From Candidatus Sulfotelmatobacter sp. (GTDB lineage: Bacteria > Acidobacteriota > Terriglobia > Terriglobales > Acidobacteriaceae): DNA of 64,000 nucleotides. Numbering within the stretch: the first letter of the stretch is position 1; each line of letters starts with the position of its first letter. The notes under the pieces are model-generated. The model was not told the origin of the DNA. It made no database searches and saw only the letters and a program-made list of their open reading frames with translations. The stretch is taken from contig JBKQRC010000002.1 in assembly GCA_052326105.1 (NCBI GenBank), positions 11,178 to 75,177 of the forward strand, in the 5' to 3' direction. A program made the translations under genes and the position numbers. This document shows, in pieces, positions 22,917-49,619 of the stretch.

Positions 22917-23202
22917 GGTCGAAGTCTCATTTCATGGATTGTTATGCCCGGGTCGTCATGCCCGGGATGTCATTCCGAGGAGCGAAGCGACGAGGAACCT
23001 GCTTCTCGCCCCGGGACGGACGATAGCATACAAGGCGGAAGAGCGGCCCTTTAGGGCCGCGTCCAAGCGCCAAAAGGATCGGCCTTTAGGCCCTGAGGGC
23101 CACCGGGGCTGAAGGCCGGAGTTCTTGGGGCAACTGTCTACGCGGCGCCGAAGCGCGGCTCTTCCACGGTTGCCTTACTGTTTCAACAAAGCCGGGGAGT
23201 TC

Positions 23203-24618
23203 CTACCGTCCGTGCCAGTGCATCTGCCAGCCCAAGTATCGCGTGGTGGCTTCGTAGGTCGCGCCCGCGACCGTCGAGAAATTCGCCGCCACGTGATGCT
23301 CGAATCCGTTCTCGCAGATGTAATGCAGCAGCTGCTGCAGCTGCGGAATCTCGACCACTCCCGCGCCCCCGAACGTGTTCAGCGGATCGCTGGTGAAGGC
23401 GCCTTCGCCAACATAGCCCCGCATCACGCCTGCGGTATCGTCGGTGGAGAAGCGGGCAAAGCTCATCGCGCCCGCTTTCACCCGCCCCACGATCGTGCCG
23501 AAAGTATTGTCCTTGCCCACCGTGCCCGCGATGATCTCCTGGAAGTCCATGCGCGAATCCTGGAAAAAATGTTTGGGCAGGTTGCTGCAGTGGAAGCAGA
23601 CAGCCTTATTGGGATCGTCGCCATAATTGTTGTTCCAGTCGAGCAGCGCGCTCGGCGTCTCCGACGCCAGCGCGAGGGCATACATGCCCAGCGTACCGCA
23701 GATATCCACCTCGCACGCCGCCGGCAGCAGATTGTTGCTCATCATGCTCATGATGGTGCAGGGCACGACGCCAAAGTATTCTTCCATCGCGGTCCAGCAC
23801 TGTACCGCGCTGATCTTCACGTCGGTGGATTTCATCCAGTCGTCGATCACGTAGCCGAGCTTTGCCATCTTGATCAAGGCCGGTTCGGGAACACCGCTGG
23901 TGGTGACGTATTTCCGGATTTCCGCCATCTTCCCCTGCACCCCGGCGTGATCGTCCTTCAGCCGGCCGATGCGCCCGAGGATTTCAGACAGGTCCACCGT
24001 CTCGGTGGTGATGCCGTTCGCTTCGAGAAGTTTTTCGCTGTAGCGCACGGTATTGAACGCCGCCGGACGCGCCCCGATGCTGCCCACGCGCAGGTTGCGG
24101 AATCCGTTGACGATGCGGCAGACGGCGGCGAACCATGCCAGGTCTTTCTGAAAATCGGCGGAGTCCGGGCTTTCCGTATGCAGCCGCGTCAGCGAATATG
24201 GGACTCCATACTGGCGCAGGTTGTTGCAGGCCGACATCTTGCCGCAGAAACTGTCGCGCCGCGAGGCAATCGTCATCTTGGCGGGAGCGTCGGGCGTGGC
24301 CTGCACCAGCACAGGAACTCTCAGCCCCGCCAGGCGCAGCGTATCGGCGATGGCGCGCTCGTCCCCGAAATTGGGGAGCGACACGATGGTGCCGTCAATG
24401 CGCTCGCGGTTCTTCTGAAACAGGGCAGCGCACCGCTTCGCCTCCTCATGCGTTTCGACGGCGCCGTGCTTGCTTTCTTCCGGCCCCAGCACGACGCAAT
24501 CCATCCCGGCCTTGGCCAGAGCCTGGATCATTTCTTCGCGGCCAGTCTTGGCCAGATGATCCGGAAAAAAGCCGCGGTTCCCGATGATGACGCCCATCGT
24601 CATTTTCTTTTGAGCCAT
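23203..24618 (-). CDS. L-fucose/L-arabinose isomerase family protein (putative non-canonical L-arabinose isomerase)
   Basis: 471 aa. The N-terminal MTMGVIIGNRGFFPDHLAKTGREE... pattern matches FucI/AraA-superfamily proteins. It lies between the symporter and araB. Confidence 0.8.
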   Translation of the reverse strand: MAQKKMTMGVIIGNRGFFPDHLAKTGREEMIQALAKAGMDCVVLGPEESKHGAVETHEEAKRCAALFQKNRERIDGTIVSLPNFGDERAIADTLRLAGLRVPVLVQATPDAPAKMTIASRRDSFCGKMSACNNLRQYGVPYSLTRLHTESPDSADFQKDLAWFAAVCRIVNGFRNLRVGSIGARPAAFNTVRYSEKLLEANGITTETVDLSEILGRIGRLKDDHAGVQGKMAEIRKYVTTSGVPEPALIKMAKLGYVIDDWMKSTDVKISAVQCWTAMEEYFGVVPCTIMSMMSNNLLPAACEVDICGTLGMYALALASETPSALLDWNNNYGDDPNKAVCFHCSNLPKHFFQDSRMDFQEIIAGTVGKDNTFGTIVGRVKAGAMSFARFSTDDTAGVMRGYVGEGAFTSDPLNTFGGAGVVEIPQLQQLLHYICENGFEHHVAANFSTVAGATYEATTRYLGWQMHWHGR

Positions 24619-24654
24619 AAGAATGCCCCTTCCTTAAACTATGAATGCGAGAAA

Positions 24655-24894
24655 TCAGGAATTACCAGCCATCCGCGCACGTTCCCGCGCCGGCGAAAAA
24701 CGCAGGCTGAAAAACAGGCCAAGGACCAGCAGCAGTCCGCCCCACCAGATATTGGCGTGCACGTTATAGAGCACAACCCGTATCGCCGGGGGATGCGCCA
24801 GCTCGTAAACTCCCGTGAGAAAGATCACAGCACCGTTCACCGCCAGACACACGCCGATGAAGAACCAAATCGACAACGATCCACCGGATTTCAT
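24655..24894 (-). CDS. small two-TM membrane protein downstream of the symporter
   Basis: MKSGGSLSIWFFIGVCLAVNGAVIFLTGVYEL...WWGGLLLVLGLFFSL. GGGGGA lies about 6 nt upstream of the ATG at 24894. The longer ORF-track start (24933) would overlap the symporter gene. Confidence 0.5.
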   Translation of the reverse strand: MKSGGSLSIWFFIGVCLAVNGAVIFLTGVYELAHPPAIRVVLYNVHANIWWGGLLLVLGLFFSLRFSPARERARMAGNS

Positions 24895-24904
24895 CGTTTT
24901 CCCC

Positions 24905-26668
24905 CTACCAGAAAATGATTTGCAGAATGACAAACCCGATCGCCACCACCGCCCCCCAGAACAGCGGGCTATGGAACATGGACACGTGCTCGTCTTTTGG
25001 AATCGGTGTGAGACCGTACACCAGATCCTTCAGCTCAGAGTCGGGCTTGGGCTGGGTCACCATGCTGACCGCTACCGTGACGATGATGCAGATCAGGCAG
25101 CACCAGAGAGCGCGGAACATGTTCTGCGCCTGGTCCTGTGCCTGCATTGAAAGCGCCACGTATCGCACCGCTCCGGGATCAACTTTTACCCAGGTGTACA
25201 TTCCGACTGAAGACAAAGTTCCAGCAAGCAGCCCCGCCCAACCTCCCGCCGGAGTGGCCCGCTTCCACATCATTCCCAGAAGCACGGTGCCGAAGAGGGG
25301 AGCAATGAAGAAGCTGAACAGCGCCTGGACGTAGTCCATGATGCTGTGGGCGTAGACCGCCAGATACGCCGCTCCGATGCTGACGATGACTCCCAGTACG
25401 GTGCACCAGCGACCCATCCGGACTTTCGAATCGTCCGACGCATTTTTGTTGATCAGGGCACCGTAGATGTCATACGTCCAAACGGTGGTGAAGGCGCTGA
25501 CGTTGCCCGCCATTCCGGACATAAAGCCTGCGATCAGAGCTGTGATGCCGAGACCCAGCAGGCCCGGTCCGCAGTAGCGTGCCAACATCAGCGGCAGAAC
25601 TTCGTCATAACCGTGCAGCCCCTGCGCCTGTCCAGCCGGAGACCACGCAAGGTCTGCGGGCACCAGCCGCAACAGACTGCCGGTGTGCGGATCGCGGAGG
25701 AGGGCCAAGCCGAGCAAACCGGGAAGAATGACGATGAAAGGAACGCACATCTTGAAAGCCGCGCCGATGATCGGTGCGAGTTTGGCCGAGCGCAGATCCT
25801 TCGCCGCGAGCACGCGCTGCACGACCAGGAAGTCAGTCGTCCAGTAGCCCATCGAGATCACTGCTCCGAGGCCAAACACAATTCCGACCCAATTGATTCC
25901 CATCGGATTGTCGGTGAAATGGCCCAAGGTCGACCACGCGTGCGTGTACGTGCCGGGGTTGGCCACATGTTGTTCGGTAAGATTCTGAAGGATCTTGGCC
26001 TTGAGTCCGGTCCACCCGCCCGCCTCGACCAACCCCAGAATTGGTATCAGCAAGGCTCCGGCCCAGATCAGAAAAAACTGGAGAACCTCATTGAAGATCG
26101 CCGAACGCAAACCGCCAAGAGCCACGTAAATCATGACCGTGATGGATGACACCAGAATGCTGAAGTGAATGTTCCATCCCAGGACGACCCTCATCACGAC
26201 AGCCATGGCGTACATGTTGATGCCGCTCATCAGGACGGTCATGAACCCAAACGAGATCGAGGAGATGGCCTGGGCGCCTTGCCCATAGCGCAGCTTGAGA
26301 TATCCGGGGACCGAGTGGGTCTTGCAGATGTGGTAGAACGGCATCATCACCAGTGCCAGGAAGAGCATTGCGGGGATGGCGCCGATCCAATACCAGTGAG
26401 CCGCGAGAATGCCATACTTATAGGCGTTGCCCGCCCAGCCCATCAGTTCGAGCGATCCCAGATTCGCCGACAGGAACGCGAGGCCCGCCACCCACGCCGT
26501 CATTTCCCGCCCGGCCATGAAGAAGCCTTCGCCGGTATTCGCCTGTCCCTTCAGGTAGAGGCCGATCGCCAGCACCAGCGCGAAGTAGAAAACGATGATG
26601 ACCAGGTCGACCGGCGACAAATGCACCAGCGTGGAGGAGGAACCGGACAACAGGAGAGCAGGGATCAT
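24905..26668 (-). CDS. sodium:solute symporter (SSS) family transporter
   Basis: 587 aa, about 14 TM helices, with typical SSS motifs (FFMAGREMTAWVAGLAFLSANLGS...). Its start overlaps the araD stop (ATGA). Confidence 0.9.
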   Translation of the reverse strand: MIPALLLSGSSSTLVHLSPVDLVIIVFYFALVLAIGLYLKGQANTGEGFFMAGREMTAWVAGLAFLSANLGSLELMGWAGNAYKYGILAAHWYWIGAIPAMLFLALVMMPFYHICKTHSVPGYLKLRYGQGAQAISSISFGFMTVLMSGINMYAMAVVMRVVLGWNIHFSILVSSITVMIYVALGGLRSAIFNEVLQFFLIWAGALLIPILGLVEAGGWTGLKAKILQNLTEQHVANPGTYTHAWSTLGHFTDNPMGINWVGIVFGLGAVISMGYWTTDFLVVQRVLAAKDLRSAKLAPIIGAAFKMCVPFIVILPGLLGLALLRDPHTGSLLRLVPADLAWSPAGQAQGLHGYDEVLPLMLARYCGPGLLGLGITALIAGFMSGMAGNVSAFTTVWTYDIYGALINKNASDDSKVRMGRWCTVLGVIVSIGAAYLAVYAHSIMDYVQALFSFFIAPLFGTVLLGMMWKRATPAGGWAGLLAGTLSSVGMYTWVKVDPGAVRYVALSMQAQDQAQNMFRALWCCLICIIVTVAVSMVTQPKPDSELKDLVYGLTPIPKDEHVSMFHSPLFWGAVVAIGFVILQIIFW

Positions 26669-27707: not shown

Positions 27708-30428
27708 TCAGGGATTGGGCCGCATGTCGCTGGAGATTCCGCCGGCGGCGGGGGCATAGCACTTCAGCGTGTAATCCATGACCATGCGATCGGCGCTGAA
27801 CCGCCAACCCAGCGTGCGGATGGCTCGTTTCATGCGCTTGATCCAGCCTCGGGGAAGACCGTCGCGATCCCGCTGGTAGTAGAGGGGAATGACTTGGTCG
27901 CGCAGCGTGCGCAGCAAGTCCTCGCCATCCCGGGTGTCATGCACGCTCATGTTCGAATGAGTTCTGCCGGTGCCAATGGCAAAACCGTTCATGCCATCGT
28001 AGGCTTCGGCCCACCAGCCATCGAGGATGGAGAGATTCAATCCTCCATTGAGTACGACTTTCTGGCCGCTGGTGCCTGACGCTTCCTGGGGCCGGCGCGG
28101 GTTGTTCAGCCAGACGTCCACGCCCTGCACAAAATGGCGCCCGACGTTAATGTCGTAGTCCTCGACGAACACGAACTTGTCGCGGAACTGCGGGTCGCGC
28201 ATCATTCCTGCAATCTGCTGCAGAACTCGCTTGCCGGGTTCGTCCAGCGGGTGGGCCTTGCCGGCGAACACAAATTGAACGGGGCGGTTCGGGTCGTTCA
28301 CCATCGCGGCCAGTTTCTCGATGTCTTTCAGAACCAGATTGGCCCGCTTGTAGGTGGCGAAGCGGCGGGCAAAGCCGATGGTGAGCGCATCCGGACTCAG
28401 CACCCGTTCCAGCCGCTGCAGCACTTCGCGCGACTCTCCCCGGCGTTCTGCCTGTTCCACGGCCCGCCGGCGCACAAACTCGATCAGCTGTGACTTGAGG
28501 GAAAGATGCGTCTCCCAAAGTTCGCCGTCGTCCACATCCTCGATGCCTTCCCAGATCTTGGCTTCGCTGCTGCGCTGTTGCCAGCCTGTGCCCAAGTGGC
28601 GGTCGTAGAGGCGAAACATATGCGTCGCCAGCCAGGAGGGAACGTGGACTCCGTTGGTGATGTGTCCGATGGGAACATCGTCCTCCGCCTTGCCGTGGAA
28701 CAGCCCGGTCCACATGGCGCGGGAGACTTCGGCATGGAGCGCCGAGACGGCGTTAGCGCGGCGCGAGAGGCGCAGCGCCAGGACCGTCATGCAGAAGAGT
28801 TCCTCGGTGTTGTCCGGCTTCTCGCGGCCCAGACCGAGCAGGCTTTCCTGGGTCAGGCCCAGCGCCTCGCGCAAGGGCCCAATGTGCTCCTCCACCAGAG
28901 CCGCGCTGAAGCGGTCGTGGCCAGCCGGGACCGGCGTGTGCGTGGTGAAGACCACTTCGCGGGACACTCGCGGAACCGCGGCCTCAAAACTGATGCCTTC
29001 GTCCTCCATCCGCATGCGAATGGCCTCCAGCACCGCAAACCCGCTATGGCCTTCATTCAGGTGGAGCACGCCGGGAGAAATCCCCAACGCCTTCAGAGCC
29101 CGCAGTCCTCCCACACCGAGCAGCACCTCTTGACGAATCCGGATGCGGAGATCCCCGCCGTACAACCGCGAAGTGAGCTCGCGGTCTTCTGGCTCATTCC
29201 CCTCCACATCCGAATCCAACAGCAGAAGGTCGCGGCGTCCAACTTTCACGCGCCAGACCTTGGCCTGAATCCGGCCACTCCGGGTCTGGATTGCCACGAC
29301 GACCGGCCTGCCGTCTTTGCCAATCGCTGCTTCCATGGGCAAGTGATTCAGGTCGGTTTCGAGATATTCTTCCCGCTGCCATCCCCCCAGATCGAGCCGT
29401 TGCCGGAAGTACCCCTGGCCGTAGAACAACCCAATCCCCACGAGCGGGATATCAAGGTCAGAGGCGCTCTTGATGTGGTCTCCCGCCAGCACTCCCAGGC
29501 CGCCCGAGTAAACCGGCAACGACTCGTGCAAACCAAACTCCGCCGAGAAATAGGCCACCGGGTGGGGCCGCAGCACGCCGGCATGCCGGGCGCCCCAGGT
29601 GCGATCCGCCTCCAGGTATTCCAGCAGACGGCGGTAGGCATAGTTCACCCGGCTATGCAGCCTGAGTTCCGCCGCCCGGGTCTCCAGTTTCGCGAGAGGA
29701 AGTTCTCCCAGCAGCGAAATGGGATTGTGATTCAGCTTGCTCCAGCGGGCCGGATCAAGGTCAACGAACAGACTGGAAGAGTTGTGGTCCCAGCTCCACC
29801 AGAGATTTCGCGCGAGTTCCCAAAGACGCTCCTGCAACGGAGCGATGAAGCGGTCCAGGGCGCGGGCTTCGCTGACCACTGGAGCCACCTGGGTGGCGGC
29901 TTCAGTCAACATCCGGATCTCGTCTTCGCCAAAAACGCGCGCCTCAATGGTCTGCACCACCAGGACACCCTGCAGAACACCTCGATCAATGAGGGGAACG
30001 CCAAGGAAGGACTGGTACGCCTCCTCGCCGGCCTCGCGGAAGTACTTGAAGCGGGGGTGGCTCTTGACCTGGCTTACGGCGACGGGGCGCAATTGTTCCG
30101 CCACCAGTCCGGTGAGCCCTTCGTGAATCGCCATCCGCAGATTGCCGATGCACTCCCGGCGCAGTCCCACCGTTGCGGCCAGTACCAGATTGGCGCGATC
30201 CGGTTCAAGCAGGTATGCCGAGCAGACGTCTGTTCTAAATCGCTTGGCGACGAGCGCCACAACGTTCATCAGGATTTCGGCGGGTGACCCGCCTTCCGCC
30301 CCGAGGTTCCCGATCTCTTCCAGAGTCAGGACATTCCATGCGTCCCGCGAACGTACTTCTGGCTCCATTTCCTGTGCTGCCTCGTCGTATCGGTCCAAAG
30401 TCTGTTTCCCCAGCCTCCGGGAGGTCAT
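27708..30428 (-). CDS. glgP: alpha-glucan (glycogen/maltodextrin) phosphorylase with N-terminal GAF domain
   Basis: 906 aa. The N-terminal ~190 aa are GAF-like (VCSAYLLEPDRANLVLAATVGL...GLTGLVAEQLRPV...SFLGVPLI..GVLVVQT). The remainder is alpha-glucan phosphorylase (YFSAEFGLHESLPVYSGGLGVLAGDH, ...SGQKVVLNGGLNLSILDGWW). Confidence 0.9.
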   Translation of the reverse strand: MTSRRLGKQTLDRYDEAAQEMEPEVRSRDAWNVLTLEEIGNLGAEGGSPAEILMNVVALVAKRFRTDVCSAYLLEPDRANLVLAATVGLRRECIGNLRMAIHEGLTGLVAEQLRPVAVSQVKSHPRFKYFREAGEEAYQSFLGVPLIDRGVLQGVLVVQTIEARVFGEDEIRMLTEAATQVAPVVSEARALDRFIAPLQERLWELARNLWWSWDHNSSSLFVDLDPARWSKLNHNPISLLGELPLAKLETRAAELRLHSRVNYAYRRLLEYLEADRTWGARHAGVLRPHPVAYFSAEFGLHESLPVYSGGLGVLAGDHIKSASDLDIPLVGIGLFYGQGYFRQRLDLGGWQREEYLETDLNHLPMEAAIGKDGRPVVVAIQTRSGRIQAKVWRVKVGRRDLLLLDSDVEGNEPEDRELTSRLYGGDLRIRIRQEVLLGVGGLRALKALGISPGVLHLNEGHSGFAVLEAIRMRMEDEGISFEAAVPRVSREVVFTTHTPVPAGHDRFSAALVEEHIGPLREALGLTQESLLGLGREKPDNTEELFCMTVLALRLSRRANAVSALHAEVSRAMWTGLFHGKAEDDVPIGHITNGVHVPSWLATHMFRLYDRHLGTGWQQRSSEAKIWEGIEDVDDGELWETHLSLKSQLIEFVRRRAVEQAERRGESREVLQRLERVLSPDALTIGFARRFATYKRANLVLKDIEKLAAMVNDPNRPVQFVFAGKAHPLDEPGKRVLQQIAGMMRDPQFRDKFVFVEDYDINVGRHFVQGVDVWLNNPRRPQEASGTSGQKVVLNGGLNLSILDGWWAEAYDGMNGFAIGTGRTHSNMSVHDTRDGEDLLRTLRDQVIPLYYQRDRDGLPRGWIKRMKRAIRTLGWRFSADRMVMDYTLKCYAPAAGGISSDMRPNP

Positions 30429-30844
30429 ACCCCATCGGTCTTGCTATTCATGATGTCATAGTCCGCGCCGTTGCGCGGACGGAAGGGGCCACCCAGGGGG
30501 ATTATTTTACGAGGTACCGGGATGACGCGCACGGCCTCCTCGGGTCAGGAATCGAGTGCTCCTGAAAAGGTGCGTAAAATGAGGAAAACGCGCATTGCGC
30601 ACGCCCGCGAGTAGGAGTAAAATTCGGGCCAATCCAGCCTTACCAGTCGAAGATGGAGCGACCAGCCCGGCATTTGGTGGTTCGAGCACGAAATATCGCG
30701 CGACGTTGGTCGCGAGGAAAGACACGAACAGGAGCCCGGCCCGCGTGTTCAGCGGCGTGGCCGCAGACAGGCGGCTGCCGACGCTTCATGACCTTGCTTG
30801 CGTATCTATCCAGCCCGTGAAGCAGCGAGATGAGGAGTGGCAAG

Positions 30845-33001
30845 ATGGAAGGAAAAGTCTCCCGCGTGGTTCGGCTTGGTGCAGGTTTACTGGGATTGAT
30901 GACCCTGGGATGGGTCCTGATCGGCCATGCCGCCAAACCCGTCCTGGAGGGGCTGCCCACGGACTGGACTCATCGGCATATCATCTTTTCCCAGCCTGCG
31001 ACGGCGGAGTTGGCAGGCATCGTTGCCCGTGATCCGCGGTACTGGCAGCAATGGTACCGGCAGAACGTCGCGCATGTCCTCGATGACGGCGTTGAGAATT
31101 CCGCCGAGATAGCCACTTGGCGCGATCGCCCCAAGGCGACGAGCAGCATACATCGCGACTGGTCCGAGGGTCTCGGCAATCTTGGTACCGTTGGTGCGGG
31201 CAACTATCCCGCCAAGTATTCGTTCAGCGTCACCACGGCAAGCTGCGGCAGTGCGGCCACGCCGGACTTTGTGGCTTTCAGCACCGGTTTGACAGGCTCG
31301 GGAACACAGGCCAGCATCGTTGCCTTCGACAATCTTTATTCTGGATGCCCCACCGGAACCATACCTTCGGTCTATTGGGCCTACAACACCGGCGGGCAGA
31401 TTCTCACTTCTCCCGTATTTTCGCGCGATGGTTCGCAGCTGGCTTTTGTGCAAACCAGTGCCGGCGCAGCCAGCCTGGTTCTGTTGAGGTGGAAGGCCTC
31501 GACCACTGAGACGGTAGGCGGTCCGGTAGCTCCTACGTCGGTTCCTCCAGCTTCATATCCCGGCTGTACTACGCCCTGCATGACTACAATCGCCTTGACC
31601 AGCGGCGGCGGGACCCCCGCCGCGACCAACGATACGACCTCGTCGGTTTTCTACGACTACGTGGGCGATACTGCCTGGGTGGGCGATGCCAAAGGCTGGC
31701 TGCATCAGTTCACTCCAGTGTTCAGTAACACTGCCGCCCCGGCCGAAATCAGGACGGCGCCCTGGCCCGTTCAGGTCAATACAACCGCGCCCACCGCGCT
31801 CACCAGTCCCGTCCATGATCATGTGTCGGGCAATGTCTTCGTGGAGGATCAGGGAGGGTTTCTCTACGCCGTGAGTGCCTCATCTGGAGCGGTGACCACG
31901 TCGGGCCGGTTGGATTTCGCTCCCGCCGCCGATATCGTTGGCGGTCTTGTCGTGGACCCGTCCGCGCAGAAGGTGTATGTCTTTGCCTCCAGCGACGGCA
32001 CCACCAATTGCACGGGTCCAGCTCCCTGCTCGGCGGTCTACCAATTGGCCACCAACTTCACCGGCGGAACGGGCTCGGAAGTCACGGTCGGGACCAGCAG
32101 TGCGGCTCCTAATCCCTTGTATGACGGCGCCTTCGACAACGCCTACCAAACTTCCTTGAACGCCACCGGAAATATCTATGTTTGCGGAGATACAGGGGTC
32201 AACCCGATGCTGTGGCAGGTCCCGATTACGGCCGGAACCTTTGGCACTGCCCTAGAGGTTGCGCCGCTAACTCCCGTTGGAAACCATCGCGCGTGTTCTC
32301 CCGTGACCGATATCTTGAACCCAAGTGCAGCCGGAGGCGCACCCGAGGAGCGGGTGTTCTTTAGCGTGACCCTCAACGCCCACCCGACGATATGCGCCAA
32401 TGGGGGCTGTGCCCTGAGCCTGGTGAATATGCCTTGGCAGAAAGGTACTACCTACTCGGTGGGTCAGGAGGTTCTGATTTACAGGATTGCGAGCACCGCT
32501 TTCTACGTCGATGTGGCTATCAACGCGACGCCCGGCACCTCGGGGGGGACCGTTCCCGCATGGCCGGCCGCGATCGGTAACGTTACGCACGATGGCGGCG
32601 TCACATGGCTCAACCAGGGAACCGCTGTTTTTACAGCGCTGGCGAACTGGGCAGGAGGGCATGCCTACGCTCAACGCGCCCGTATTGTCGACAGTAATGG
32701 CAACGTCGAGGTCGTGATCGTAGGGGGAGCGGGAACTTCCGGCGGCACCGATCCTGCCTGGGCCACAACGGCTGGCCTGAATACCACCGACGGCACAGTG
32801 ACGTGGGTCAATGCCGGTGTATTGGCCGCCGCAGGTTTGCCCGCGACCGGAGGCACAAGCGGAATTATCATAGATAACACCGTCAGCCAGACAACGCAGG
32901 CGGGAGCTTCTCAGCTATACTTCAGCACTCTGGGCAATGAGGCTTGTCCGACAACGTCAACCGGCTGCGCAGTGCAGGCGTCTCAGACTCAATTAAAATA
33001 G
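30845..33001 (+). CDS. secreted hypothetical protein, beta-propeller-like middle region and two C-terminal ~60-aa repeat modules
   Basis: The ORF track gives 30830..33001. The ATG at 30845 has GAGGAG 7 nt upstream. It has a signal/anchor (VVRLGAGLLGLMTLGWVLIGHA) and blade-like segments (VYWAYNTGGQILTSPVFSRDGSQLAFV; GNVFVEDQGGFLYAV; KVYVFASSDG). I recognise no named family. Confidence 0.7.
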   Translation: MEGKVSRVVRLGAGLLGLMTLGWVLIGHAAKPVLEGLPTDWTHRHIIFSQPATAELAGIVARDPRYWQQWYRQNVAHVLDDGVENSAEIATWRDRPKATSSIHRDWSEGLGNLGTVGAGNYPAKYSFSVTTASCGSAATPDFVAFSTGLTGSGTQASIVAFDNLYSGCPTGTIPSVYWAYNTGGQILTSPVFSRDGSQLAFVQTSAGAASLVLLRWKASTTETVGGPVAPTSVPPASYPGCTTPCMTTIALTSGGGTPAATNDTTSSVFYDYVGDTAWVGDAKGWLHQFTPVFSNTAAPAEIRTAPWPVQVNTTAPTALTSPVHDHVSGNVFVEDQGGFLYAVSASSGAVTTSGRLDFAPAADIVGGLVVDPSAQKVYVFASSDGTTNCTGPAPCSAVYQLATNFTGGTGSEVTVGTSSAAPNPLYDGAFDNAYQTSLNATGNIYVCGDTGVNPMLWQVPITAGTFGTALEVAPLTPVGNHRACSPVTDILNPSAAGGAPEERVFFSVTLNAHPTICANGGCALSLVNMPWQKGTTYSVGQEVLIYRIASTAFYVDVAINATPGTSGGTVPAWPAAIGNVTHDGGVTWLNQGTAVFTALANWAGGHAYAQRARIVDSNGNVEVVIVGGAGTSGGTDPAWATTAGLNTTDGTVTWVNAGVLAAAGLPATGGTSGIIIDNTVSQTTQAGASQLYFSTLGNEACPTTSTGCAVQASQTQLK

Positions 33002-33187
33002 ATGGACCAGGTTCCTCCTATGGCTATGAACGATGTGCCCTCTGACAATCCGCGTACTCCAGTTATGAAGAAGCCGTATGAAAAGCCATCGTTCCGGTAC
33101 GAACAGGTGTTTGTTACCACCGCCCTTTCGTGCGGGAAGGTGGCCGGCACACAGGGCAACTGCCTTCATCTCGGCAGCGCGTCATGA
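33002..33187 (+). CDS. candidate RiPP precursor peptide (61 aa; 40 aa if started at ATG 33065)
   Basis: ...MKKPYEKPSFRYEQVFVTTALSCGKVAGTQGNCLHLGSAS. It has a YxxPxF motif, a TT pair, two Cys and a C-terminal Ser. Its stop overlaps the ATG of the next gene (ATGA at 33184-33187). Third-position GC is high, like the neighbouring genes. Small ORFs arise by chance in GC-rich DNA, so confidence is moderate. Confidence 0.5.
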   Translation: MDQVPPMAMNDVPSDNPRTPVMKKPYEKPSFRYEQVFVTTALSCGKVAGTQGNCLHLGSAS

Positions 33188-33663
33188 AGCCTCTGCCGCC
33201 AGCATCCGGCGAAGCCCATGCTGTCAAATGCGAACTGGCGGGCGACATCCTGCATTCGTCTGGAACCTTGCGCCTGCGGGTGATGGGCTGGAGCATGCTG
33301 CCCAGCTTGTGGCCCGGCGACACGCTGGTGATTGAGCGGGTGGAGAGCGGCGCGGTTTCTGAAGGAGATATTGTCCTGTTCGGCCGCGACCGCCGGCTTT
33401 TTGCCCACCGCGTGGTAGCGAAAAGCAGCCCGGCCGGGGACACGAGGATTTTGACCCGCGGCGACGCCATGCCGCAGCCGGACCCGCCCCTGTCAGAGCA
33501 CGATATGCTGGGAAAAGTCACGTCTGTCGTTCGCAATGGGAAGTGTATTGAGCCGAGCAGGACTCCGCGCCTTTCCGAGCGCGCGGTTGCAGCTTTGGTT
33601 CGAAACTCGGAAATCGCTGCCCGTGTCGTTGTGGGCGTACACGGCATGCGTCAAACGTCGTAA
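33184..33663 (+). CDS. S26-family peptidase, SipW/ER (Ser-His) type, apparently soluble
   Basis: VMGWSMLPSLWPGDTLVIERV (S-M-x-P catalytic Ser box), GDIVLFGRDRRLFAHRVV (His where bacterial LepB has Lys) and TRGDAMPQPDPP (cf. SipW TKGDNN..D). There is no clear N-terminal TM anchor. The start was taken at ATG 33184 (ATGA overlap) rather than the track start 33130. Confidence 0.75.
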   Translation: MKPLPPASGEAHAVKCELAGDILHSSGTLRLRVMGWSMLPSLWPGDTLVIERVESGAVSEGDIVLFGRDRRLFAHRVVAKSSPAGDTRILTRGDAMPQPDPPLSEHDMLGKVTSVVRNGKCIEPSRTPRLSERAVAALVRNSEIAARVVVGVHGMRQTS

Positions 33664-33676
33664 GATCGAGTATCCC

Positions 33677-34507
33677 TTGCCAGAATTAACCGCCGAAGTC
33701 GAATGCCTCAGCCTCGTGATCGAAATCGGAGGCATGCCCGTCCGTGTGAATACGACGGACCCGGGCTTCCTGGCCATGCTCGAGCGCCGCTACTCAGGCT
33801 TTTTGGGCTTATCAGAAAAAGCTGAAATGGAATTTGATGTTGATCTGGTTCAGCCTGGCTCGGCTGAGCTTGGCTTCGCCGATCCCGATGCCGGCGTGAG
33901 CGTGACTCAGCATCGGGGCCGCTGGTCTCTGACTCGCGGCGATTTTCGGGCCGAGTGGGAACCGGCAGCCCGGAAGGGCTGGATTCGCCAGTCGGCCAAT
34001 CCTTATTCGATCGATGCGGTGCTTCGCATTGTGCATTCGCTTGTGCTGGCCCGGCAGGGCGGCTTCCTGCTGCACTCGGCCAGCGCCCTGCGAAACGGGA
34101 AGGCATTCCTTTTCGCCGGCGTTTCCGGCGCGGGGAAGACCACCATTTCCCGGCTGGCGCCTTCCGACGCTACTCTTCTTACCGACGAAATCTCCTACGT
34201 CCGCAAACAGGGCGACGGTTATGTGGCCTTCGGCACTCCGTTCACCGGGGAACTGGCCAAGCTGGGCGAGAATGTTTCGGCGCCGGTCGCCGCACTCTAC
34301 CTGCTGGCACAAGGCCCGGAAAACAGGATTGACCCGGTCGCGCCCGGCGAAGCCGCCCGGTCTCTTCTTGCCAATGTTTTGTTTTTCGCGGAAGATGAAG
34401 AACTGGTGCAGGCCGAGTTTCATTCCGCTTTCGAGTTCGTAAGCCGGGTACCGGTTTCGCGCCTTACCTTTGTGCCCGATGCCCGGGTGTGGGAGTTGAT
34501 TCGATGA
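33677..34507 (+). CDS. HPr-kinase-like P-loop serine kinase (HprK-related)
   Basis: LHSASALRNGKAFLFAGVSGAGKTTISRL...LLTDEISYV...FGTPFTGE is the HprK C-terminal-domain pattern with a Walker A motif. The start is uncertain: TTG 33677, GTG 33716 and ATG 33734 are candidates, or GTG 33623/TTG 33629 overlapping the peptidase gene. The ORF-track start 33536 would overlap by 128 nt. Confidence 0.75.
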   Translation: MPELTAEVECLSLVIEIGGMPVRVNTTDPGFLAMLERRYSGFLGLSEKAEMEFDVDLVQPGSAELGFADPDAGVSVTQHRGRWSLTRGDFRAEWEPAARKGWIRQSANPYSIDAVLRIVHSLVLARQGGFLLHSASALRNGKAFLFAGVSGAGKTTISRLAPSDATLLTDEISYVRKQGDGYVAFGTPFTGELAKLGENVSAPVAALYLLAQGPENRIDPVAPGEAARSLLANVLFFAEDEELVQAEFHSAFEFVSRVPVSRLTFVPDARVWELIR

Positions 34508-34821
34508 GCAGGCTTTTTGTGGCGCGGAATCCCCGGGTGGCGGCGCGCTGCCTCGACGGCGAAATGATGATTATGTCGGGGCGGGATTCGACTCTCTTCA
34601 CCCTGAACCGGACGGCGACCATCCTCTGGCAAGCGGCGGACGGGACGACCCCGCTGGATGAGATCGTGCAATCGAAGATTTGCCCCGAATTCGATGTCGA
34701 ACCCGCCGAGGCGCTGCAGGATGCCGAGACTCTGGCGCGGGAACTTGCCGGCCATGAGATCTTGCAGATCTCCGAAGAACCGATCCCGGCGGGAAAGGCA
34801 TTGGCTGGAGAATCCCGATGA
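34504..34821 (+). CDS. PqqD-family protein (RiPP recognition element-like chaperone)
   Basis: MSRLFVARNPRVAARCLDGEMMIMSGRDSTLFTLNRTATILWQAADGTTPLDEIV...AETLARELAGHEIL is the typical PqqD/RRE pattern. The ATG at 34504 overlaps the kinase stop (ATGA). Confidence 0.85.
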   Translation: MSRLFVARNPRVAARCLDGEMMIMSGRDSTLFTLNRTATILWQAADGTTPLDEIVQSKICPEFDVEPAEALQDAETLARELAGHEILQISEEPIPAGKALAGESR

Positions 34822-35927
34822 GCGGACTGCTCGAGCAGATGACCGAGAAGGCGCTGGCCCTGAACATTCCGCTCAGCGTCCAACTCGATCTCACCTACCG
34901 CTGCAATGAGCGGTGCGTGCACTGCTATCTCGATCATGACGATCACGGCGAGATGACGACCGAGGAAATCAAGCATCTCCTCGACGAAATGGCCGCGGCG
35001 GGCGTCTTCATTTTGACCCTAAGCGGCGGTGAAATCTTCGTACGCAAGGATTTCTTCGAAATTCTCGAGTACGCCCGCCAGCGGACCTTCTGCATAAAGC
35101 TCAAGACCAATGCCATCCTGATTCGCGAAGCCGAGGCGGCGCGCATCCGCGATCTCGGCGTCGAATCCATCCAGATCAGCATTTACTCTCACCGCCCCGA
35201 AGTTCACGATGCCATCACGCTGGTGCGGGGCTCGCTCGAGCGCTCTCTGGATGCGATTCGCTTTCTCAAGTCGCAGGGGTTGCGTGTCGTCATAGCCAAC
35301 GTTCTGATGATCCAGAATGTGCAGGATTACACCGGTGTACGCGCGCTGGCCGAAGAATTGGGCGTCGAGTCCACGCTTGATCCGACGATCACGCCGATGA
35401 TGGATGGCAACCGCTCGGTCCTGAACCTGGCCGTCGACCAGAGCGCCCTGCAGCAGGTCTTTCGCGATACGGGCCTGGTGGGGAATGTGGACGAATTCTG
35501 CGCGGTCGCAGCGCCCGCCGATGAGAGCGCGCTGTCATCCCTACCCTGCAGCGCCAGTCACACCACTTGCTATGTTTCGCCGTATGGCGACGTTTTTCCC
35601 TGCGTCCAGTTTCCGCTTCCCACCGGCAATGTCAGGAAGCAGCGCTTCCTTGACATCTGGCGGCACTCGGATCAGATGAATGAAGTGCGTGGGATCCGAA
35701 TCAAGGATCTGACGACCTGCACCCAGTGCTCTCACGTGTCAAGCTGCTCGCGGTGTCCCGGCTTGGCCTTTATGGAAGGAAATATGCGCGGGCCCTCGAC
35801 GCAGGATTGCGAGAAGTCCTTCGCGAGGACCGGAGTTCCGTCGGCAAATATGCTGTCGAAAAAGCGCGCACGGGCAAATCTCGTCCAGATTCGGACGCTT
35901 CCGGCCTTGGCAAGCGCGTCTGCTTAA
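34818..35927 (+). CDS. radical SAM enzyme with SPASM domain
   Basis: CNERCVHC (CxxxCxxC, nt 34902-34925), GGEIF, and a C-terminal SPASM pattern (LPCSASHTTCYVSPYGDVFPC...GNV...FLDIW...CTQCSHVSSCSRCPGLA). The ATG overlaps the PqqD stop (ATGA). Confidence 0.9.
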   Translation: MSGLLEQMTEKALALNIPLSVQLDLTYRCNERCVHCYLDHDDHGEMTTEEIKHLLDEMAAAGVFILTLSGGEIFVRKDFFEILEYARQRTFCIKLKTNAILIREAEAARIRDLGVESIQISIYSHRPEVHDAITLVRGSLERSLDAIRFLKSQGLRVVIANVLMIQNVQDYTGVRALAEELGVESTLDPTITPMMDGNRSVLNLAVDQSALQQVFRDTGLVGNVDEFCAVAAPADESALSSLPCSASHTTCYVSPYGDVFPCVQFPLPTGNVRKQRFLDIWRHSDQMNEVRGIRIKDLTTCTQCSHVSSCSRCPGLAFMEGNMRGPSTQDCEKSFARTGVPSANMLSKKRARANLVQIRTLPALASASA

Positions 35928-36052
35928 CAGACCGTGTCGCGAATACGATTCGTATCAGGGTATGCCTTCAGGCATACCGCGAGTACTGAGTTATCTCTGC
36001 GCCTTCAGGCGCTGAATTTGCGACTCTGAGTTTCGCCACGGCTTGTTGACTC

Positions 36053-37240
36053 GTGCGCGCGGGTCGTACCAAAATCATGCCCGGGACTGGCGCCACGCCC
36101 GATGCCGAGTGGTCCATACTGCTAGCCGCGTGTTCCCGAGCGCCGTTCGAGGAGAAACGCAGCCTCCTTCTGCCCCAGCTTCAGCAACCGGTTCGCTGGC
36201 AGAGACTTTTTGCTCTCGCCGATGAGCACGGCGTCCAGCCACTCTTATACGAGTCGCTATCGCGCCTTCAGGAAGCGGTTCCTGCCAATGAGTTTGGTTC
36301 CCTGCAACAAAGTTGCCGGACCAATCTGCACAAAGCCCTGTTGCTTTCGCGCGAGTTGATTCGAATCATCGAGCACCTCTCTGCACTCGGCATTGAGGTC
36401 ATGCCTCACAAGGGCCCGGCCTTGGCCGAAGTTCTCTACGCCGACATCGCCTTGCGGCAGGCTGGCGATATCGACCTGATCGTCCATCCGCAGGATTTGC
36501 ATCGCATCCGCGATGCGGTCGGCGAACTCGGCTACACGCCACACGACCATTTCTCCGCCAGGGAAGAACGGGCGTATCTGAAATCGGGATACGAATATGC
36601 CTTCGACGGTGTCGCCGGGCCCAACCTTCTGGAGTTGCAGTGGGCGATTCAGCCGCGATTTTATGCAGTCGATTTCGACATGGACGGCCTGTTCCAGCGG
36701 GCCGTGACTATCACGGTGGCTGGCCGGCCGATGAAGACTCCGGCACCCTCCGACCTGCTTCTCACTCTGTCACTGCACGCGGCCAAGCATGTGTGGAGGC
36801 GGCTCGCCTGGCTCTGCGATATCGCGCAGCTGATCAGCCTGCCCAACCTCGACTGGGACTGGATCGGATCGCAGGCCCAAGACTTGGGAATGTTGCGAAT
36901 CTTGCGCGTCACCCTGCTCGCGGCCAGCCAGTTGCTGCGCGCTTCCATCCCCGCCGCGGTACAGAAGATTTTCCCCGAAGATCGCGAAGCGCCTGCGCTG
37001 GCAGAGGAGATCCGGACTTATATCGTCAGCGAGTCTGCCTTCAATGTCGAGTCGCTGGCGTATTTCCGCCTGATGATGCGCCTGCGCGAAAGGCCGGCAG
37101 ACCGGATGCGATTTCTCGCGCGCCTGGTGTTTACGCCCGGCCCCGGCGAATGGGCGGCGGTTCATCTCCCCGGACCTTTATTCCCGCTATACCGTCTGGT
37201 CCGGATTTCTCGTCTGGCGGCGAGACTGGCCGGAGCTTGA
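36053..37240 (+). CDS. uncharacterised nucleotidyltransferase family protein (PF14907/NTP_transf_5-like)
   Basis: The N-terminal EWSILLAACSRAPFEEKRSLL...VRWQRLFALADEHGVQPLLYESL and central KGPALAEVLYADIALRQAGDIDLIV match my memory of this family. The start is GTG 36053 or ATG 36077. Confidence 0.75.
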   Translation: MRAGRTKIMPGTGATPDAEWSILLAACSRAPFEEKRSLLLPQLQQPVRWQRLFALADEHGVQPLLYESLSRLQEAVPANEFGSLQQSCRTNLHKALLLSRELIRIIEHLSALGIEVMPHKGPALAEVLYADIALRQAGDIDLIVHPQDLHRIRDAVGELGYTPHDHFSAREERAYLKSGYEYAFDGVAGPNLLELQWAIQPRFYAVDFDMDGLFQRAVTITVAGRPMKTPAPSDLLLTLSLHAAKHVWRRLAWLCDIAQLISLPNLDWDWIGSQAQDLGMLRILRVTLLAASQLLRASIPAAVQKIFPEDREAPALAEEIRTYIVSESAFNVESLAYFRLMMRLRERPADRMRFLARLVFTPGPGEWAAVHLPGPLFPLYRLVRISRLAARLAGA

Positions 37241-37260
37241 ATGGAAGTTGATCTGGCGCT

Positions 37261-38454
37261 TTAGGCCGGCTGCTCCGCGGGCGCGCGTTTCCAGTCGCGC
37301 AGGTACAGAAGGAACATGGCCGCGGCTCCGAACAGCGGCACGGCCAGTCCCGCTTTGAGAGTGCCGAAGCGAGTCGATGCCACACCGACGATCCATGGCA
37401 ACGATCCCCCTCCGAGGTTGGACAGCGTGAACATGACAGAACCCACTCGCGATGCCGCCATGCCGAATTCCCGGGACATCAGCGAAATGGTGATGGGATA
37501 CACCGCCGACAGGCCCAATCCGGCAAGCGAAGCACTCGCGACCACTCCTGGCAAGTTGTGCGACATGACAAGACCCATCATTCCGGCGCAAGCAACTAGC
37601 AATCCCGCCTGCACCAGTCGAACGTCATCCACCGTTCGCAAGAACAGCGGCGCCAGCCAGCGGCCGAGCATGAGCGAGGCATAAAAAAAAGACGGGGTCA
37701 TCAGCGCCATAGTCAGCGTCAAGGTTCCCAGGCTTTTCGCATACGAAGCCACCCACAATCCGAAGCTGTTCTCCGTCCCCACATAGACGAAGAAGAGTAT
37801 TCCCAGGACGGGCAGAGCGCGGTTTCTCCAGTCAATCCGCGGACCTTTATTCCCGCCATCCACGCTGACAGCCGGTTCCACGATGGAAGCGGGCATGACC
37901 GCGATGCCAGCCGCCACCAGGAAAGAGAAGCCCGCCACCACGTATAGAAGTAGCGGAATCCGGAGGTTCTTCGCCGCGGCCGCTACCAGAAACGGGCACG
38001 CCACCGCCCCCGCGCTCCAACAGAAGTTGAGCGTATTCAAGGACGCGCTTCTCCGCCTGGGATTCACCTCAGCTACCAGTAAGTTGCCCGCAGGCACTGC
38101 GAGCCCCAGCCCTATTCCATAGGCCGCGATGCAGACCATACCCAGCGCTTTCGAGCCGGCAAGCAACAGCACGATCCCGGCAGCCACCAGCAGAAGGCCG
38201 GCCTTGATCGCGAAGCGATATCCGCGGCGCGCAATCAACCAACCGGAGAGCGACACCGCCAGTGTCGCAGCCAGGTATTGAACGGTAAACAGAACGCCTG
38301 CCTGCGAGTAGTTCAACGACCATCGCGCCGATAGCGTTGGCAGCATCGGGCCGAGCAGCACGGTCACGATGCCGATGGGGACAAACGCCGCGCACGCCGA
38401 GAGAGTCAGAGGTCTGGCGGAGCCTGGAGCTTGTGCTGTGTCGGGAGCGGGCAT
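37261..38454 (-). CDS. MFS transporter
   Basis: 397 aa, 12 predicted TM helices, MFS-like loop motifs. It is convergent with the nucleotidyltransferase gene, with a 20-bp gap. Confidence 0.85.
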   Translation of the reverse strand: MPAPDTAQAPGSARPLTLSACAAFVPIGIVTVLLGPMLPTLSARWSLNYSQAGVLFTVQYLAATLAVSLSGWLIARRGYRFAIKAGLLLVAAGIVLLLAGSKALGMVCIAAYGIGLGLAVPAGNLLVAEVNPRRRSASLNTLNFCWSAGAVACPFLVAAAAKNLRIPLLLYVVAGFSFLVAAGIAVMPASIVEPAVSVDGGNKGPRIDWRNRALPVLGILFFVYVGTENSFGLWVASYAKSLGTLTLTMALMTPSFFYASLMLGRWLAPLFLRTVDDVRLVQAGLLVACAGMMGLVMSHNLPGVVASASLAGLGLSAVYPITISLMSREFGMAASRVGSVMFTLSNLGGGSLPWIVGVASTRFGTLKAGLAVPLFGAAAMFLLYLRDWKRAPAEQPA

Positions 38455-49227: not shown

Positions 49228-49572
49228 AGTTTCTCCTCGCAGGTCTCTTTCGTTCCCAGCCTGCACCGGGAGGAAAATTGGCTTGGGCTGAGTTGGGAAA
49301 CCTGACCGTTCGTATTGTGCTCCCTCTGCGGCGAATGTCAACTGTGAAAATCCGCGCTGGAAGCCTGTTCTGCAATTACTAGGCCCGAAATGGGCCGACC
49401 CAGGTGGTTTTTCGCCTGCCGGGGAAGGTTTTCCAACGCCCTCCACAGGCCGCGCGGTTCCTTCACAGGATGTACACAGGCCGCCAGCCTTTCTGGCTTG
49501 CGCAAGATGTACCTTCGGGTGCAAAGTCGAAATGTAGGAGTTTGGCAGGTCTCAGTCGGCGGAAATGGTCGT

Positions 49573-49619
49573 GCAGGGACAGCCGCCCTCGGCTGTCCGG
49601 TCGAGTGAAACTCGACGGG
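49573..49619 (+). repeat. Family A hairpin repeat
   Basis: gcagggacagccgccctcggctgtccggtcgagtgaaactcgacggg. Confidence 0.8.

Follow-up and report, generated by a model that had tools for sequence, protein, structure and literature searches.

In lasso peptide biosynthesis, HprK-like kinases phosphorylate the C-terminal Ser of the precursor, and an enzyme of the NTP_transf type glycosylates that phosphate (PMC8498205). The B1 protein of these systems, a RiPP recognition element (RRE; RiPP, a peptide made by the ribosome and modified after translation), is also needed for kinase action, and the YxxPxL motif occupies positions -17 to -12 of the leader (PMC10368454). Here we report on a locus of 'Candidatus Sulfotelmatobacter' sp. 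in which comparable genes stand beside a gene for a radical SAM (rSAM) enzyme. The window, that is, the whole 64,000-nucleotide stretch of DNA that was analyzed (assembly GCA_052326105.1, contig JBKQRC010000002.1, positions 11,178 to 75,177 of the forward strand), contains a small open reading frame (ORF) at 33002..33187 (+), which a preliminary description made from the letters alone had put forward as a precursor peptide with a lasso-like leader, two Cys and a C-terminal Ser. Our analyses indicate that the product of this gene is very probably the substrate of an undescribed RiPP modification family that is common in peat-soil Acidobacteria. We consider it likely that 33020..33187 encodes a 55-residue ribosomal precursor peptide that is modified by the products of five co-transcribed, partly translationally coupled downstream genes. 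The six genes are listed below, and peptide residues are numbered throughout in the 55-residue form that starts at ATG 33020.

33020..33187 (+), precursor peptide gene, 55 aa and stop: MAMNDVPSDNPRTPVMKKPYEKPSFRYEQVFVTTALSCGKVAGTQGNCLHLGSAS
33184..33663 (+), S24/S26-like serine peptidase, soluble, 159 aa; candidate leader peptidase, start overlapping the peptide stop
33677..34507 (+), ScmC-family P-loop kinase-like protein; TTG 33677 gives 276 aa, the mechanical ORF begins within the peptidase gene, at 33536, and the start is uncertain
34504..34821 (+), discrete PqqD-family protein (RRE), 105 aa; ATG overlapping the ScmC stop as ATGA, mechanical ORF starting at GTG 34489
34818..35927 (+), rSAM enzyme, 369 aa, carrying a complete SPASM domain; start overlapping the PqqD stop (ATGA)
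36053..37240 (+), NTP_transf_5 nucleotidyltransferase-family protein, 395 aa (Pfam PF14907, E 1.6e-59)

Comparison with described systems

The locus resembles the phosphorylated and phosphoglycosylated lasso systems (paeninodin, pseudomycoidin, BsfA) in having a YxxPx(L/F) leader, a discrete, B1-like PqqD protein, an HprK-related, kinase-like gene, an NTP_transf_5-type gene and a peptide that ends in Ser. Unlike those systems, the window cassette has no cyclase, no B2 cysteine protease and no acidic acceptor, the place of cyclase and B2 being taken by the rSAM/SPASM enzyme and the S26-like protease. In addition, Thr(-2) does not seem to be conserved, and the predicted fold of the ScmC-like protein is nearer to phosphoenolpyruvate carboxykinase (PEPCK) than to HprK/P.

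These likenesses raise the possibility of a true lasso precursor with the genes for its cyclase and B2 protease at some other place, which would account for the YxxPxF motif with its downstream Thr residues, for the best curated match of the PqqD protein (a lasso B1 model, 25 bits) and for the kinase-like and NTP_transf_5 companions, as found in lasso clusters of Firmicutes. However, an rSAM/SPASM gene is always present instead, and no Asn-synthetase-like cyclase and no transglutaminase-like B2 protein turned up in the cluster genes, in the window's 20 other large ORFs or in the Pfam assignments precomputed for the syntenic loci. The absence of a cyclase, which the preliminary description had noted, thus extends to the syntenic loci. 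Its remark that the peptide offers no acidic residue for a macrolactam was also borne out: the window peptide has no Asp or Glu after its TT, core positions 7-9 show no conserved Asp/Glu, and any such residue occurs in just 23 of 239 tails (17/120 and 6/119), at no fixed position. These and the other peptide statistics given below were obtained from 239 cluster representatives, together with alignments of both subfamilies and of distant members. The window peptide does carry the lasso-type leader feature, Y20-E-K-P23-S-F25, and lacks the macrolactam acceptor, the cyclase and B2 genes and any NCBIfam match to a curated lasso-leader model at E up to 10. On these grounds a lasso precursor was rejected, and we regard it as highly improbable.

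Sactipeptide- and ranthipeptide-type systems (SkfA/SkfB, subtilosin AlbA, SCIFF/CteB) share with the locus a short precursor beside an rSAM enzyme with a full SPASM domain, a PqqD-type recognition element and conserved Cys residues in the C-terminal part of the peptide, and SkfB is the nearest solved relative of the window rSAM enzyme. In contrast to these systems, the RRE of the window cassette is separate from the rSAM enzyme, and the scores against all curated sacti- and ranthipeptide models are far below cut-off. The cassette also adds a P-loop protein of the PEPCK/HprK fold, an NTP_transf_5 protein and a signal-peptidase-like protease. The window peptide differs as well, having two Cys only, an invariant C-x-K and an invariant terminal Ser, and its thioether is putative.

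SynChlorMet (Scm) and GeoRSP, two systems defined in silico in TIGRFAMs/NCBIfam, likewise have a ScmC-family protein (PF27840), a PqqD homolog and an rSAM/SPASM gene side by side. The window proteins nevertheless score well below the cut-offs of the corresponding models (score/cut-off: ScmC, 35.7/125; ScmE, 105.7/400; ScmF, 64.6/400; GeoRSP rSAM, 116/400; GeoRSP PqqD, 22/100). SynChlorMet has two rSAM genes (ScmE and ScmF), whereas the window locus has one. The window locus also has genes for a peptidase and a nucleotidyltransferase, and its precursor can be clearly recognized. To our knowledge, no precursor has been identified for the Scm cassette as described in TIGRFAMs.

Mycofactocin (MftA/B/C) and pyrroloquinoline quinone (PQQ; PqqA/D/E) biosynthesis are similar to the locus in their small, conserved precursor, discrete PqqD-like chaperone, rSAM/SPASM enzyme and chromosomal location. 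The rSAM enzyme again remains below the curated cut-offs (MftC, 146.8/265; PqqE, 103/381), the peptide ends in ..GSAS with neither Gly-Val-Tyr nor Glu-x3-Tyr, and MftD/E/F and PqqB/C are not at the window locus. Because all of these scores are below cut-off, the locus is not an equivalog of SynChlorMet, GeoRSP, mycofactocin or PQQ. It resembles an RRE-dependent rSAM/SPASM RiPP system with tailoring genes of the phosphorylated lasso type and would belong to an uncharacterized class. A search of a full-text library returned nothing on the peptide, on ScmC-type, SynChlorMet or GeoRSP cassettes or on combinations of rSAM, PqqD, HPr kinase and nucleotidyltransferase, and a peatland survey of biosynthetic gene clusters mentions only the generic classes 'ranthipeptide' and 'RRE-containing'.

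The peptide gene and evidence of its translation

A protein search with the peptide identified 483 homologs (clustered sequences), and the best 120 of the 483 are 64-97% identical to it. A profile built from distant peptides led to a second subfamily of 201 proteins, all of them unnamed. None of the homologs from the protein search had a functional name or a Pfam domain, every source calls the peptide hypothetical, and the peptide itself matched no NCBIfam family at E up to 10 and no Pfam family.

Comparison of 71 distinct DNA versions of the conserved 24-codon block gave minor-allele fractions of 0.052 at the first, 0.032 at the second and 0.387 at the third codon position, and residues of this block such as Y, K, P, F, V, T, A, L and C were invariant though encoded by 2-5 different codons. 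In a six-frame search of 1.73 Mb with the family pattern Y..P-x13/14-C-x-[KR]...C...[ST]-stop, all 100 matches were family peptide genes and none fell elsewhere; the window has exactly one match, at 33077. Together, these data showed that the gene is translated into a genuine protein, on which purifying selection acts. The ORF is short, its surroundings are 60% G+C and it mostly has no annotation name in the records, all of which would suit an ORF that arose by chance, or a spacer that separates two real genes and is not translated. That explanation is refuted by the hundreds of homologs, the codon-position signature of translation and the confinement of the motif to the peptide gene, and we assign it a negligible probability.

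The ORF at 33002..33187 (+) translates as MDQVPPMAMNDVPSDNPRTPVMKKPYEKPSFRYEQVFVTTALSCGKVAGTQGNCLHLGSAS followed by a stop codon. The details previously quoted for it agreed with the window sequence, the start excepted: YEKPSF lies at 33077-33094, TT follows 8-9 residues past the Phe of this motif, the two Cys are encoded at 33131-33133 and 33161-33163, and the C-terminal Ser at 33182-33184. The ATGA overlap between the peptide stop (TGA, 33185-33187) and the peptidase start (ATG, 33184-33186) was also seen, as was the end of the upstream ORF at 33001, for which the NCBI call is 718 aa. The earlier choice of ATG 33002 as the start did not hold, as the homologs open at a Met that matches ATG 33020. 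The true start is most likely ATG 33020, giving 55 aa, since the homologs (53-57 aa) begin there with MAMND or MTMND and since a conserved tract, at 33002-33019, precedes that ATG.

33002..33019 (+), spacer with a ribosome-binding-like element, ATGGACCAGGTTCCTCCT; holds the first ATG of the mechanical ORF, which is probably not the start

The 18 bases of this spacer match an AGGT/GGGT element and a pyrimidine-rich, CCTCCT-like tract that are conserved directly 5' of the ATG in ~70 loci. The conservation of this tract (..AGGTT(C/T)C(T/C)CCT-ATG) is unusual, and its pyrimidine part resembles an anti-Shine-Dalgarno rather than a Shine-Dalgarno sequence. A start at Met16 (MKKPYEK) was rejected because that Met is not conserved, and a lipoprotein or signal peptide was rejected because a hydrophobic h-region is absent from the peptide. 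A scan of 30300-37500 for promoters and terminators found nothing that exceeded shuffled expectation. Four-base ATGA overlaps occur at three junctions, namely peptide/peptidase (33184), ScmC/PqqD (34504) and PqqD/rSAM (34818), and suggest tight translational coupling, which would include that of the precursor with the first enzyme.

Linkage of the peptide to the putative modification genes

To place the peptide in its genetic context, we scanned one genome per species, which gave 140 matching stretches, of which 80 loci were kept. The carriers comprise at least 140 species genomes, nearly all of them Terriglobia, Acidobacteriaceae or 'Ca. Sulfotelmatobacter' metagenome-assembled genomes (MAGs), including the peat MAG SbA1. 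About 70 of the 80 loci share the gene order of the window: a protein of ~700 aa, the peptide, the S24/S26-like peptidase, ScmC, PqqD, the rSAM/SPASM enzyme, NTP_transf_5 and, on the opposite strand, a major facilitator superfamily (MFS) transporter. The preliminary description had proposed to look for a conserved small ORF at related S26/PqqD/rSAM clusters, and such an ORF was found at the equivalent position and in the same frame, with YxxPxF, the Cys pair and the terminal Ser. Its reading as a precursor peptide is supported by this conserved ORF, which travels with the PqqD, rSAM, kinase-like and peptidase genes.

One locus, L084, has the genes peptide-S24-ScmC-PqqD-rSAM amid unrelated genes, with a pyridoxal phosphate (PLP) enzyme upstream and a SET-domain protein and AcrB downstream, and it lacks both the 700-aa protein and the nucleotidyltransferase. 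The presence of this cassette in a wholly different neighborhood indicates that the five-gene unit moves as a block. The NTP_transf_5 gene is missing from L069, L079 and L084. In another locus, from a 'Ca. Sulfotelmatobacter' MAG (L029, 9001-10603), ScmC, PqqD and rSAM have been lost, NTP_transf_5 comes directly after what remains of the peptidase gene, and the peptide is intact (..CGKISITQVNCTSTTLKAS).

More distant cassettes were obtained through the ScmC-like protein, which had 10,517 matches at E<1e-3 and 204 at E<1e-30 among 50%-identity representatives. The distant loci derive from full-length representatives at 34-39% identity by HMMER (33-39% by tblastn for the loci cited here). A metagenome scan with five ScmC sequences and a generic P-loop pattern yielded only 10 loci. 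Every distant locus with an rSAM/SPASM gene and enough flanking sequence held a family small ORF, at differing positions in the cassette, as the following gene orders illustrate (pep, peptide; NTase, nucleotidyltransferase).

L090: ScmC-PqqD-rSAM-pep-NTase
L092 and L110: S24-ScmC-PqqD-pep-rSAM-NTase (tandem duplicate in L109/L110)
L101: ScmC-PqqD-rSAM-pep-S24-B12 rSAM-ABC exporter-NTase
L103: ScmC-PqqD-pep-rSAM
L105: ScmC-PqqD-rSAM-S24 ... pep
L089: ScmC-PqqD, followed on the other strand by the peptide, which adjoins a transposase

The conservation of the small ORF therefore reaches beyond the clusters with the window's gene order, as relatives of the peptide are also found where ScmC is 33-39% identical and the order is shuffled. 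These findings showed that the peptide is genetically inseparable from PqqD, rSAM/SPASM, ScmC-like and S24/S26-like genes, and usually NTP_transf_5, over a wide evolutionary distance and despite rearranged gene orders. No family peptide was found at the ScmC loci without an rSAM gene (L104, L106 and L107), which suggests that the ScmC family may have other substrates. At these loci, ScmC-PqqD follows an acetyltransferase gene (L104), ScmC-PqqD and an NTP_transf_5 fragment lie among cell-envelope genes (L106), or ScmC stands beside a NUDIX hydrolase (L107).

In the tandem duplication of L109/L110, on one 99-kb metagenome contig, the whole cassette is repeated and the two 55-aa peptides are identical. 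The second copy has a split S24 gene, and nearby are three genes for SAM-methyltransferases as well as beta-propeller genes of the PQQ/SBBP type. L101 (9184-14738) is a divergent cassette with an additional, B12-binding rSAM enzyme and an ABC exporter, and its peptide has three Cys (..ALACGKCAGAAGPVAKVGCGALPSSS). This variant is more elaborate and probably secreted.

Anatomy of the peptide

Two parts of the peptide can be predicted from its conservation.

33020..33130 (+), predicted leader, residues 1-37, with K-K-x-Y20-x-x-P23-x-F25 (33077-33094), E28-x-x-F31 and A35-L36-S37; boundary placed by prediction
33131..33184 (+), predicted core, residues 38-55: C38-G-K40, variable, C48, variable, S55

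The N-terminus, of ~17 residues, is basic or hydrophilic, and is followed by K-[KR]-x-Y-x-x-P-x-Phi, in which the Tyr and Pro are invariant in all subfamilies and distant members and the residue at +5 is hydrophobic (F, I, M or V) in most members, with the exception of L101. Next in the family comes E-x-[VL]-F, whose Phe (F31) is invariant across both subfamilies and the distant members. The conserved block is closed by (TT)-A-L-[S/A]-C-x-K, of which the first Cys (Cys1) and the Lys/Arg are present in every motif-bearing sequence; the residue between them is Gly in the subfamily of the window and G, M, K or A in the other. The distance from Tyr to Cys1 is 18 in 238 of the 239 representatives, and a second Cys is likewise present in 238, most often with 9 residues between it and Cys1 and with 6-8 variable residues behind it. 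The last residue is Ser in 236/239 and Thr in 3/239. Between the invariant positions of the core the sequence varies.

The lasso-like YxxPxF...TT leader of the preliminary description was upheld for its first half. The YxxP motif is conserved family-wide, but TT (T33-T34), although kept in two subfamilies, including the KRKYEPPE subfamily, is replaced in distant members by QL (L101, ..EQLALACGK), AN (L090, ..EANVLACGK) or AA (L089, ..TAAAGCGK). The loss of TT in the most distant members indicates that it is probably not the equivalent of the lasso Thr(-2), and with Tyr placed at -17, as in lasso leaders, Ala35 and not a Thr comes to lie at -2.

The conserved block extends through Ala-Leu-Ser/Ala-Cys-x-Lys, and a boundary between leader and core just before the first Cys is more likely than one just after TT. 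At the Ala-Leu-Ser/Ala site, Ala at -3 and Ser, Ala, Thr or Gly at -1 are kept in 237/239 representatives. Type I signal peptidases follow a -3/-1 rule of small residues, which these conserved residues fit. The lasso spacing (Tyr = -17) would move the boundary one residue earlier, to L36|S37, and by either boundary the mature peptide would have ~18-19 residues, (S)CGKVAGTQGNCLHLGSAS.

Proteins of the cassette

The peptidase matched Pfam Peptidase_S24 (E 5e-6) and S26 (E 1.6e-3), and its score against the NCBIfam model of archaeal/ER-type signal peptidase I (45.6 bits) was just below the cut-off of 51.85. No hydrophobic segment was found in its sequence. The residues G-x-S37-M-x-P, H75-R76, G93-D94 and D100 were at least 95% conserved in 71 orthologs, including that of the distant L101. 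A peptidase gene is also present in the divergent cassettes L092, L101, L105 and L110, and is missing from L090.

Orthologs of the ScmC-like protein carry the precomputed Pfam assignment PF27840 (ScmC). Its NCBIfam matches were weak (ScmC, 35.7 bits with a cut-off of 125; HprK_rel_A, E 4e-5; HprK_rel_B, E 1.6e-4), as was a match to PEPCK_ATP (E 1.2e-3). The Walker A motif, GVSGAGKTT, is conserved, together with a His, an Asp and a Glu. The AlphaFold2 (AF2) model has two domains and a predicted local distance difference test (pLDDT) score of 93.8. In Foldseek searches its best match was ATP-PEPCK (E 6e-9, template modeling (TM) score ~0.5), which aligned across both domains, and HprK/P (E 1e-4, TM score 0.25-0.31 of the query) aligned with the P-loop domain only. 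By this model, the ScmC-like protein has a predicted phosphotransferase fold of the PEPCK/HprK class. Sequence searches of the PDB with the ScmC-like, NTP_transf_5 and propeller proteins gave no significant match.

The PqqD protein matched Pfam PqqD (E 1.7e-11) and, weakly and always below cut-off, the NCBIfam lasso PqqD chaperones and GeoRSP PqqD. A discrete PqqD is present in every peptide-bearing cassette among the loci examined. The rSAM enzyme matched Pfam Radical_SAM (E 4.5e-24) and SPASM (E 1.1e-10), and its cysteine motifs (CNERCVHC, C-x12-G-x4-C and CTQCSHVSSCSRC) comprise CX3CX2C and a complete SPASM set. It belongs to none of the curated maturase families, as all 63 NCBIfam matches were below cut-off: the best was MftC, followed by AhbD, NirJ2, WgkB and GeoRSP, and other scores included StsB, 96/625, AlbA, 82/850, and SkfB, 74/300. 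Its nearest solved relatives are SkfB (E 6e-16) and then PqqE, SuiB and CteB, all of which modify peptides. The NTP_transf_5 gene occurs in most Terriglobia loci and in L090, L092, L101 and L110, and is thus frequent, not obligatory.

37261..38454 (-), MFS transporter (Pfam MFS_1, E 2.5e-22)

The MFS transporter is syntenic in most Terriglobia loci and missing from the divergent cassettes. A role as exporter is possible but unsupported.

The upstream beta-propeller protein

Directly upstream of the peptide gene lies a larger gene.

30845..33001 (+), 718-aa protein (ORF open from 30830) with a predicted N-terminal transmembrane or signal-anchor helix, beta-propeller and beta-rich C-terminal domain

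This protein matched no Pfam or NCBIfam family. Its AF2 model (mean pLDDT 70.7) has a helix at residues 5-30, and the best Foldseek matches were propellers of the BamB/WD40 type (E ~1e-6); from the model we predict a membrane-anchored beta-propeller. Of the 88 Terriglobia-type loci that were examined, nearly all have a homolog directly upstream of the peptide, and L084 is the sole clear exception. In six loci (L064, L067, L071, L076, L085 and L088) the propeller and an intact peptide are present and the enzymes are not within the 9-kb flank (less in short contigs, e.g., L071). Within Terriglobia, the linkage of the peptide to the propeller protein, which the preliminary description does not mention, is thus no looser than its linkage to the enzymes and may be tighter. 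The orphan pairs of propeller and peptide are followed by an unknown protein of 540-740 aa, an OmpA-family protein and a PAS/sigma-54 activator.

In the window, the 723-codon upstream ORF and the peptide ORF share a frame, with a lone TAG (32999-33001) between them. Read-through or fusion is unlikely because most loci have the two genes out of frame or 15-45 nt apart, and this candidate was rejected, as the fusions seen in L062 and L076 lie in frameshift-ridden long-read MAGs.

The constancy of the propeller gene immediately 5' of the peptide in nearly all Terriglobia loci could also mean that the main function of the small protein is to partner or bind the propeller, as a subunit, tether or cognate signal, and that the enzyme cassette is just one context for it, and a dispensable one. 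The six loci without enzymes in the 9-kb flank, whose peptides retain both Cys and the terminal Ser, would fit such a relationship, as would the shared frame with one intervening TAG in the window and the beta-propeller genes near the cassettes of L090, L105 and L110. However, outside Terriglobia the peptide follows ScmC-PqqD-rSAM and not a propeller homolog, L084 has peptide and enzymes with no propeller, and the apparent fusions in L062 and L076 come from error-prone long-read MAGs with obvious frameshifts. The orphan copies may, moreover, be additional substrates that are modified in trans, as the core of the L084 peptide (CGKTGTQGSC) resembles the orphan cores (CGKTGTQGQC). A function primarily as propeller partner therefore seems very unlikely to us.

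Proposed pathway

For the peptide as a modified precursor, we propose the following pathway, much of which is modeled on described systems. The discrete PqqD protein would bind the leader through K-K-x-Y-x-x-P-x-Phi, a motif of the type bound by lasso B1 proteins, and present the peptide to the rSAM/SPASM enzyme, which would act by a radical mechanism on the C-x-K ... C segment of the core. The likeliest product of that step would be a thioether of the sacti/ranthi type, or another cross-link, at Cys38 and/or Cys48. By analogy with the HprK-like kinases of paeninodin-type systems, the ScmC-like P-loop protein may phosphorylate the hydroxyl of the C-terminal Ser/Thr, and the NTP_transf_5 enzyme may further decorate this phosphate, as in pseudomycoidin. 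The soluble, signal-peptidase-like Ser/His protease would cut after Ala(-3)-Leu-Ser/Ala(-1) (A35-L36-S37) and so release ~18 residues that begin with Cys38. A macrolactam would not be formed, and the product would hence not be a lasso peptide.

The same enzymes might instead act on the precursor of an intracellular cofactor or conserved signal, similar to PqqA or MftA, and yield a small conserved product (e.g., from Cys-x-Lys) or a signal of a housekeeping kind, in place of a diversifying natural product that is secreted. In at least 140 Terriglobia species the locus is chromosomal and single-copy, with conserved synteny and housekeeping-type genes on either side, the peptide is 65-97% identical across species with invariant residues within its putative core, the operon is without an exporter, and the best curated match of the rSAM enzyme is the mycofactocin maturase MftC, followed by AhbD and NirJ. 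Against this, MftC scored far below its cut-off (146.8 versus 265), the best solved relative is the sactisynthase SkfB, and the peptide has neither the C-terminal Val-Tyr of MftA nor the Glu...Tyr of PqqA. The sequence of the tail is variable, but its length, second Cys and terminal Ser are retained, which suggests that the whole tail is in the product, and L101 has the ABC exporter and extra B12-rSAM enzyme that are typical of secreted RiPPs. A cofactor or signal precursor of this kind appears rather unlikely, but in view of the high conservation, the chromosomal synteny and the exporter-less operon the product may have a cofactor- or signal-like role.

Several observations weigh against a modified RiPP precursor and the proposed steps. 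The peptide is kept in L029 despite the loss of ScmC, PqqD and rSAM, and in Terriglobia the six loci described above have propeller and peptide with no nearby enzymes. Sequence conservation is unusually high for a RiPP, and the operon has no dedicated exporter. As the ScmC-like model is nearer to PEPCK than to HprK/P, the label of a protein or peptide Ser kinase is not secure, and as none of the cassette enzymes reaches any curated NCBIfam cut-off, they cannot be assigned a specific chemistry from those families. The absence of the peptidase from L090 and of the nucleotidyltransferase from three Terriglobia loci indicates that those steps are not universal. Finally, it is by analogy that we infer RRE binding, Ser phosphorylation, Cys cross-linking and leader cleavage.

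Taking the precursor reading further, we tentatively suggest that the window peptide is the founding member of an undescribed RiPP class, a possibility that we rate at somewhat less than even. Its product would be an rSAM-cross-linked peptide of ~18 residues, from which the leader is removed after Ala-x-Ser/Ala by a cytoplasmic signal-peptidase-like enzyme and whose C-terminal Ser is phosphorylated and then nucleotidylated or glycosylated, encoded by a single-copy, syntenic locus that is tied to the propeller in peat-soil Terriglobia. If this suggestion is correct, the peptide would supply the missing precursor type for ScmC/PqqD/rSAM cassettes, and the system would be a conserved signal-receptor or cofactor-like one rather than an antibiotic. 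The high conservation and the link to the propeller likewise suggest a physiological role, as signal or cofactor, over one in warfare.

The family of several hundred clustered sequences has very sharp invariants (YxxP, a C-x-K whose spacing is fixed, another Cys and a C-terminal Ser), and its hosts are dominant, mostly uncultured bacteria of peat and soil. Its combination of elements is unusual, in that leader logic and tailoring genes of the lasso type meet rSAM chemistry and a candidate leader protease of the signal-peptidase kind. Since a substrate, a probable recognition motif, a probable cleavage site and three candidate modification sites can now be named, a formerly anonymous set of rSAM, PqqD, kinase-like and nucleotidyltransferase genes has become directly testable.

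Other features of the window

Three large ORFs of the window, at 706-2394, 3079-5478 and 23125-24918, matched no Pfam family. A second rSAM gene, at 7138-8892 (-), is unrelated to that of the cassette and of the UPF0004/MiaB-like type. The window also contains a gene for an IstB-like ATPase (IS21 helper) at 49404-50474 (+) and, at 17495-21148 (-), one for a 1217-aa Ser/Thr protein kinase fused to long arrays of tetratricopeptide repeats (TPR).

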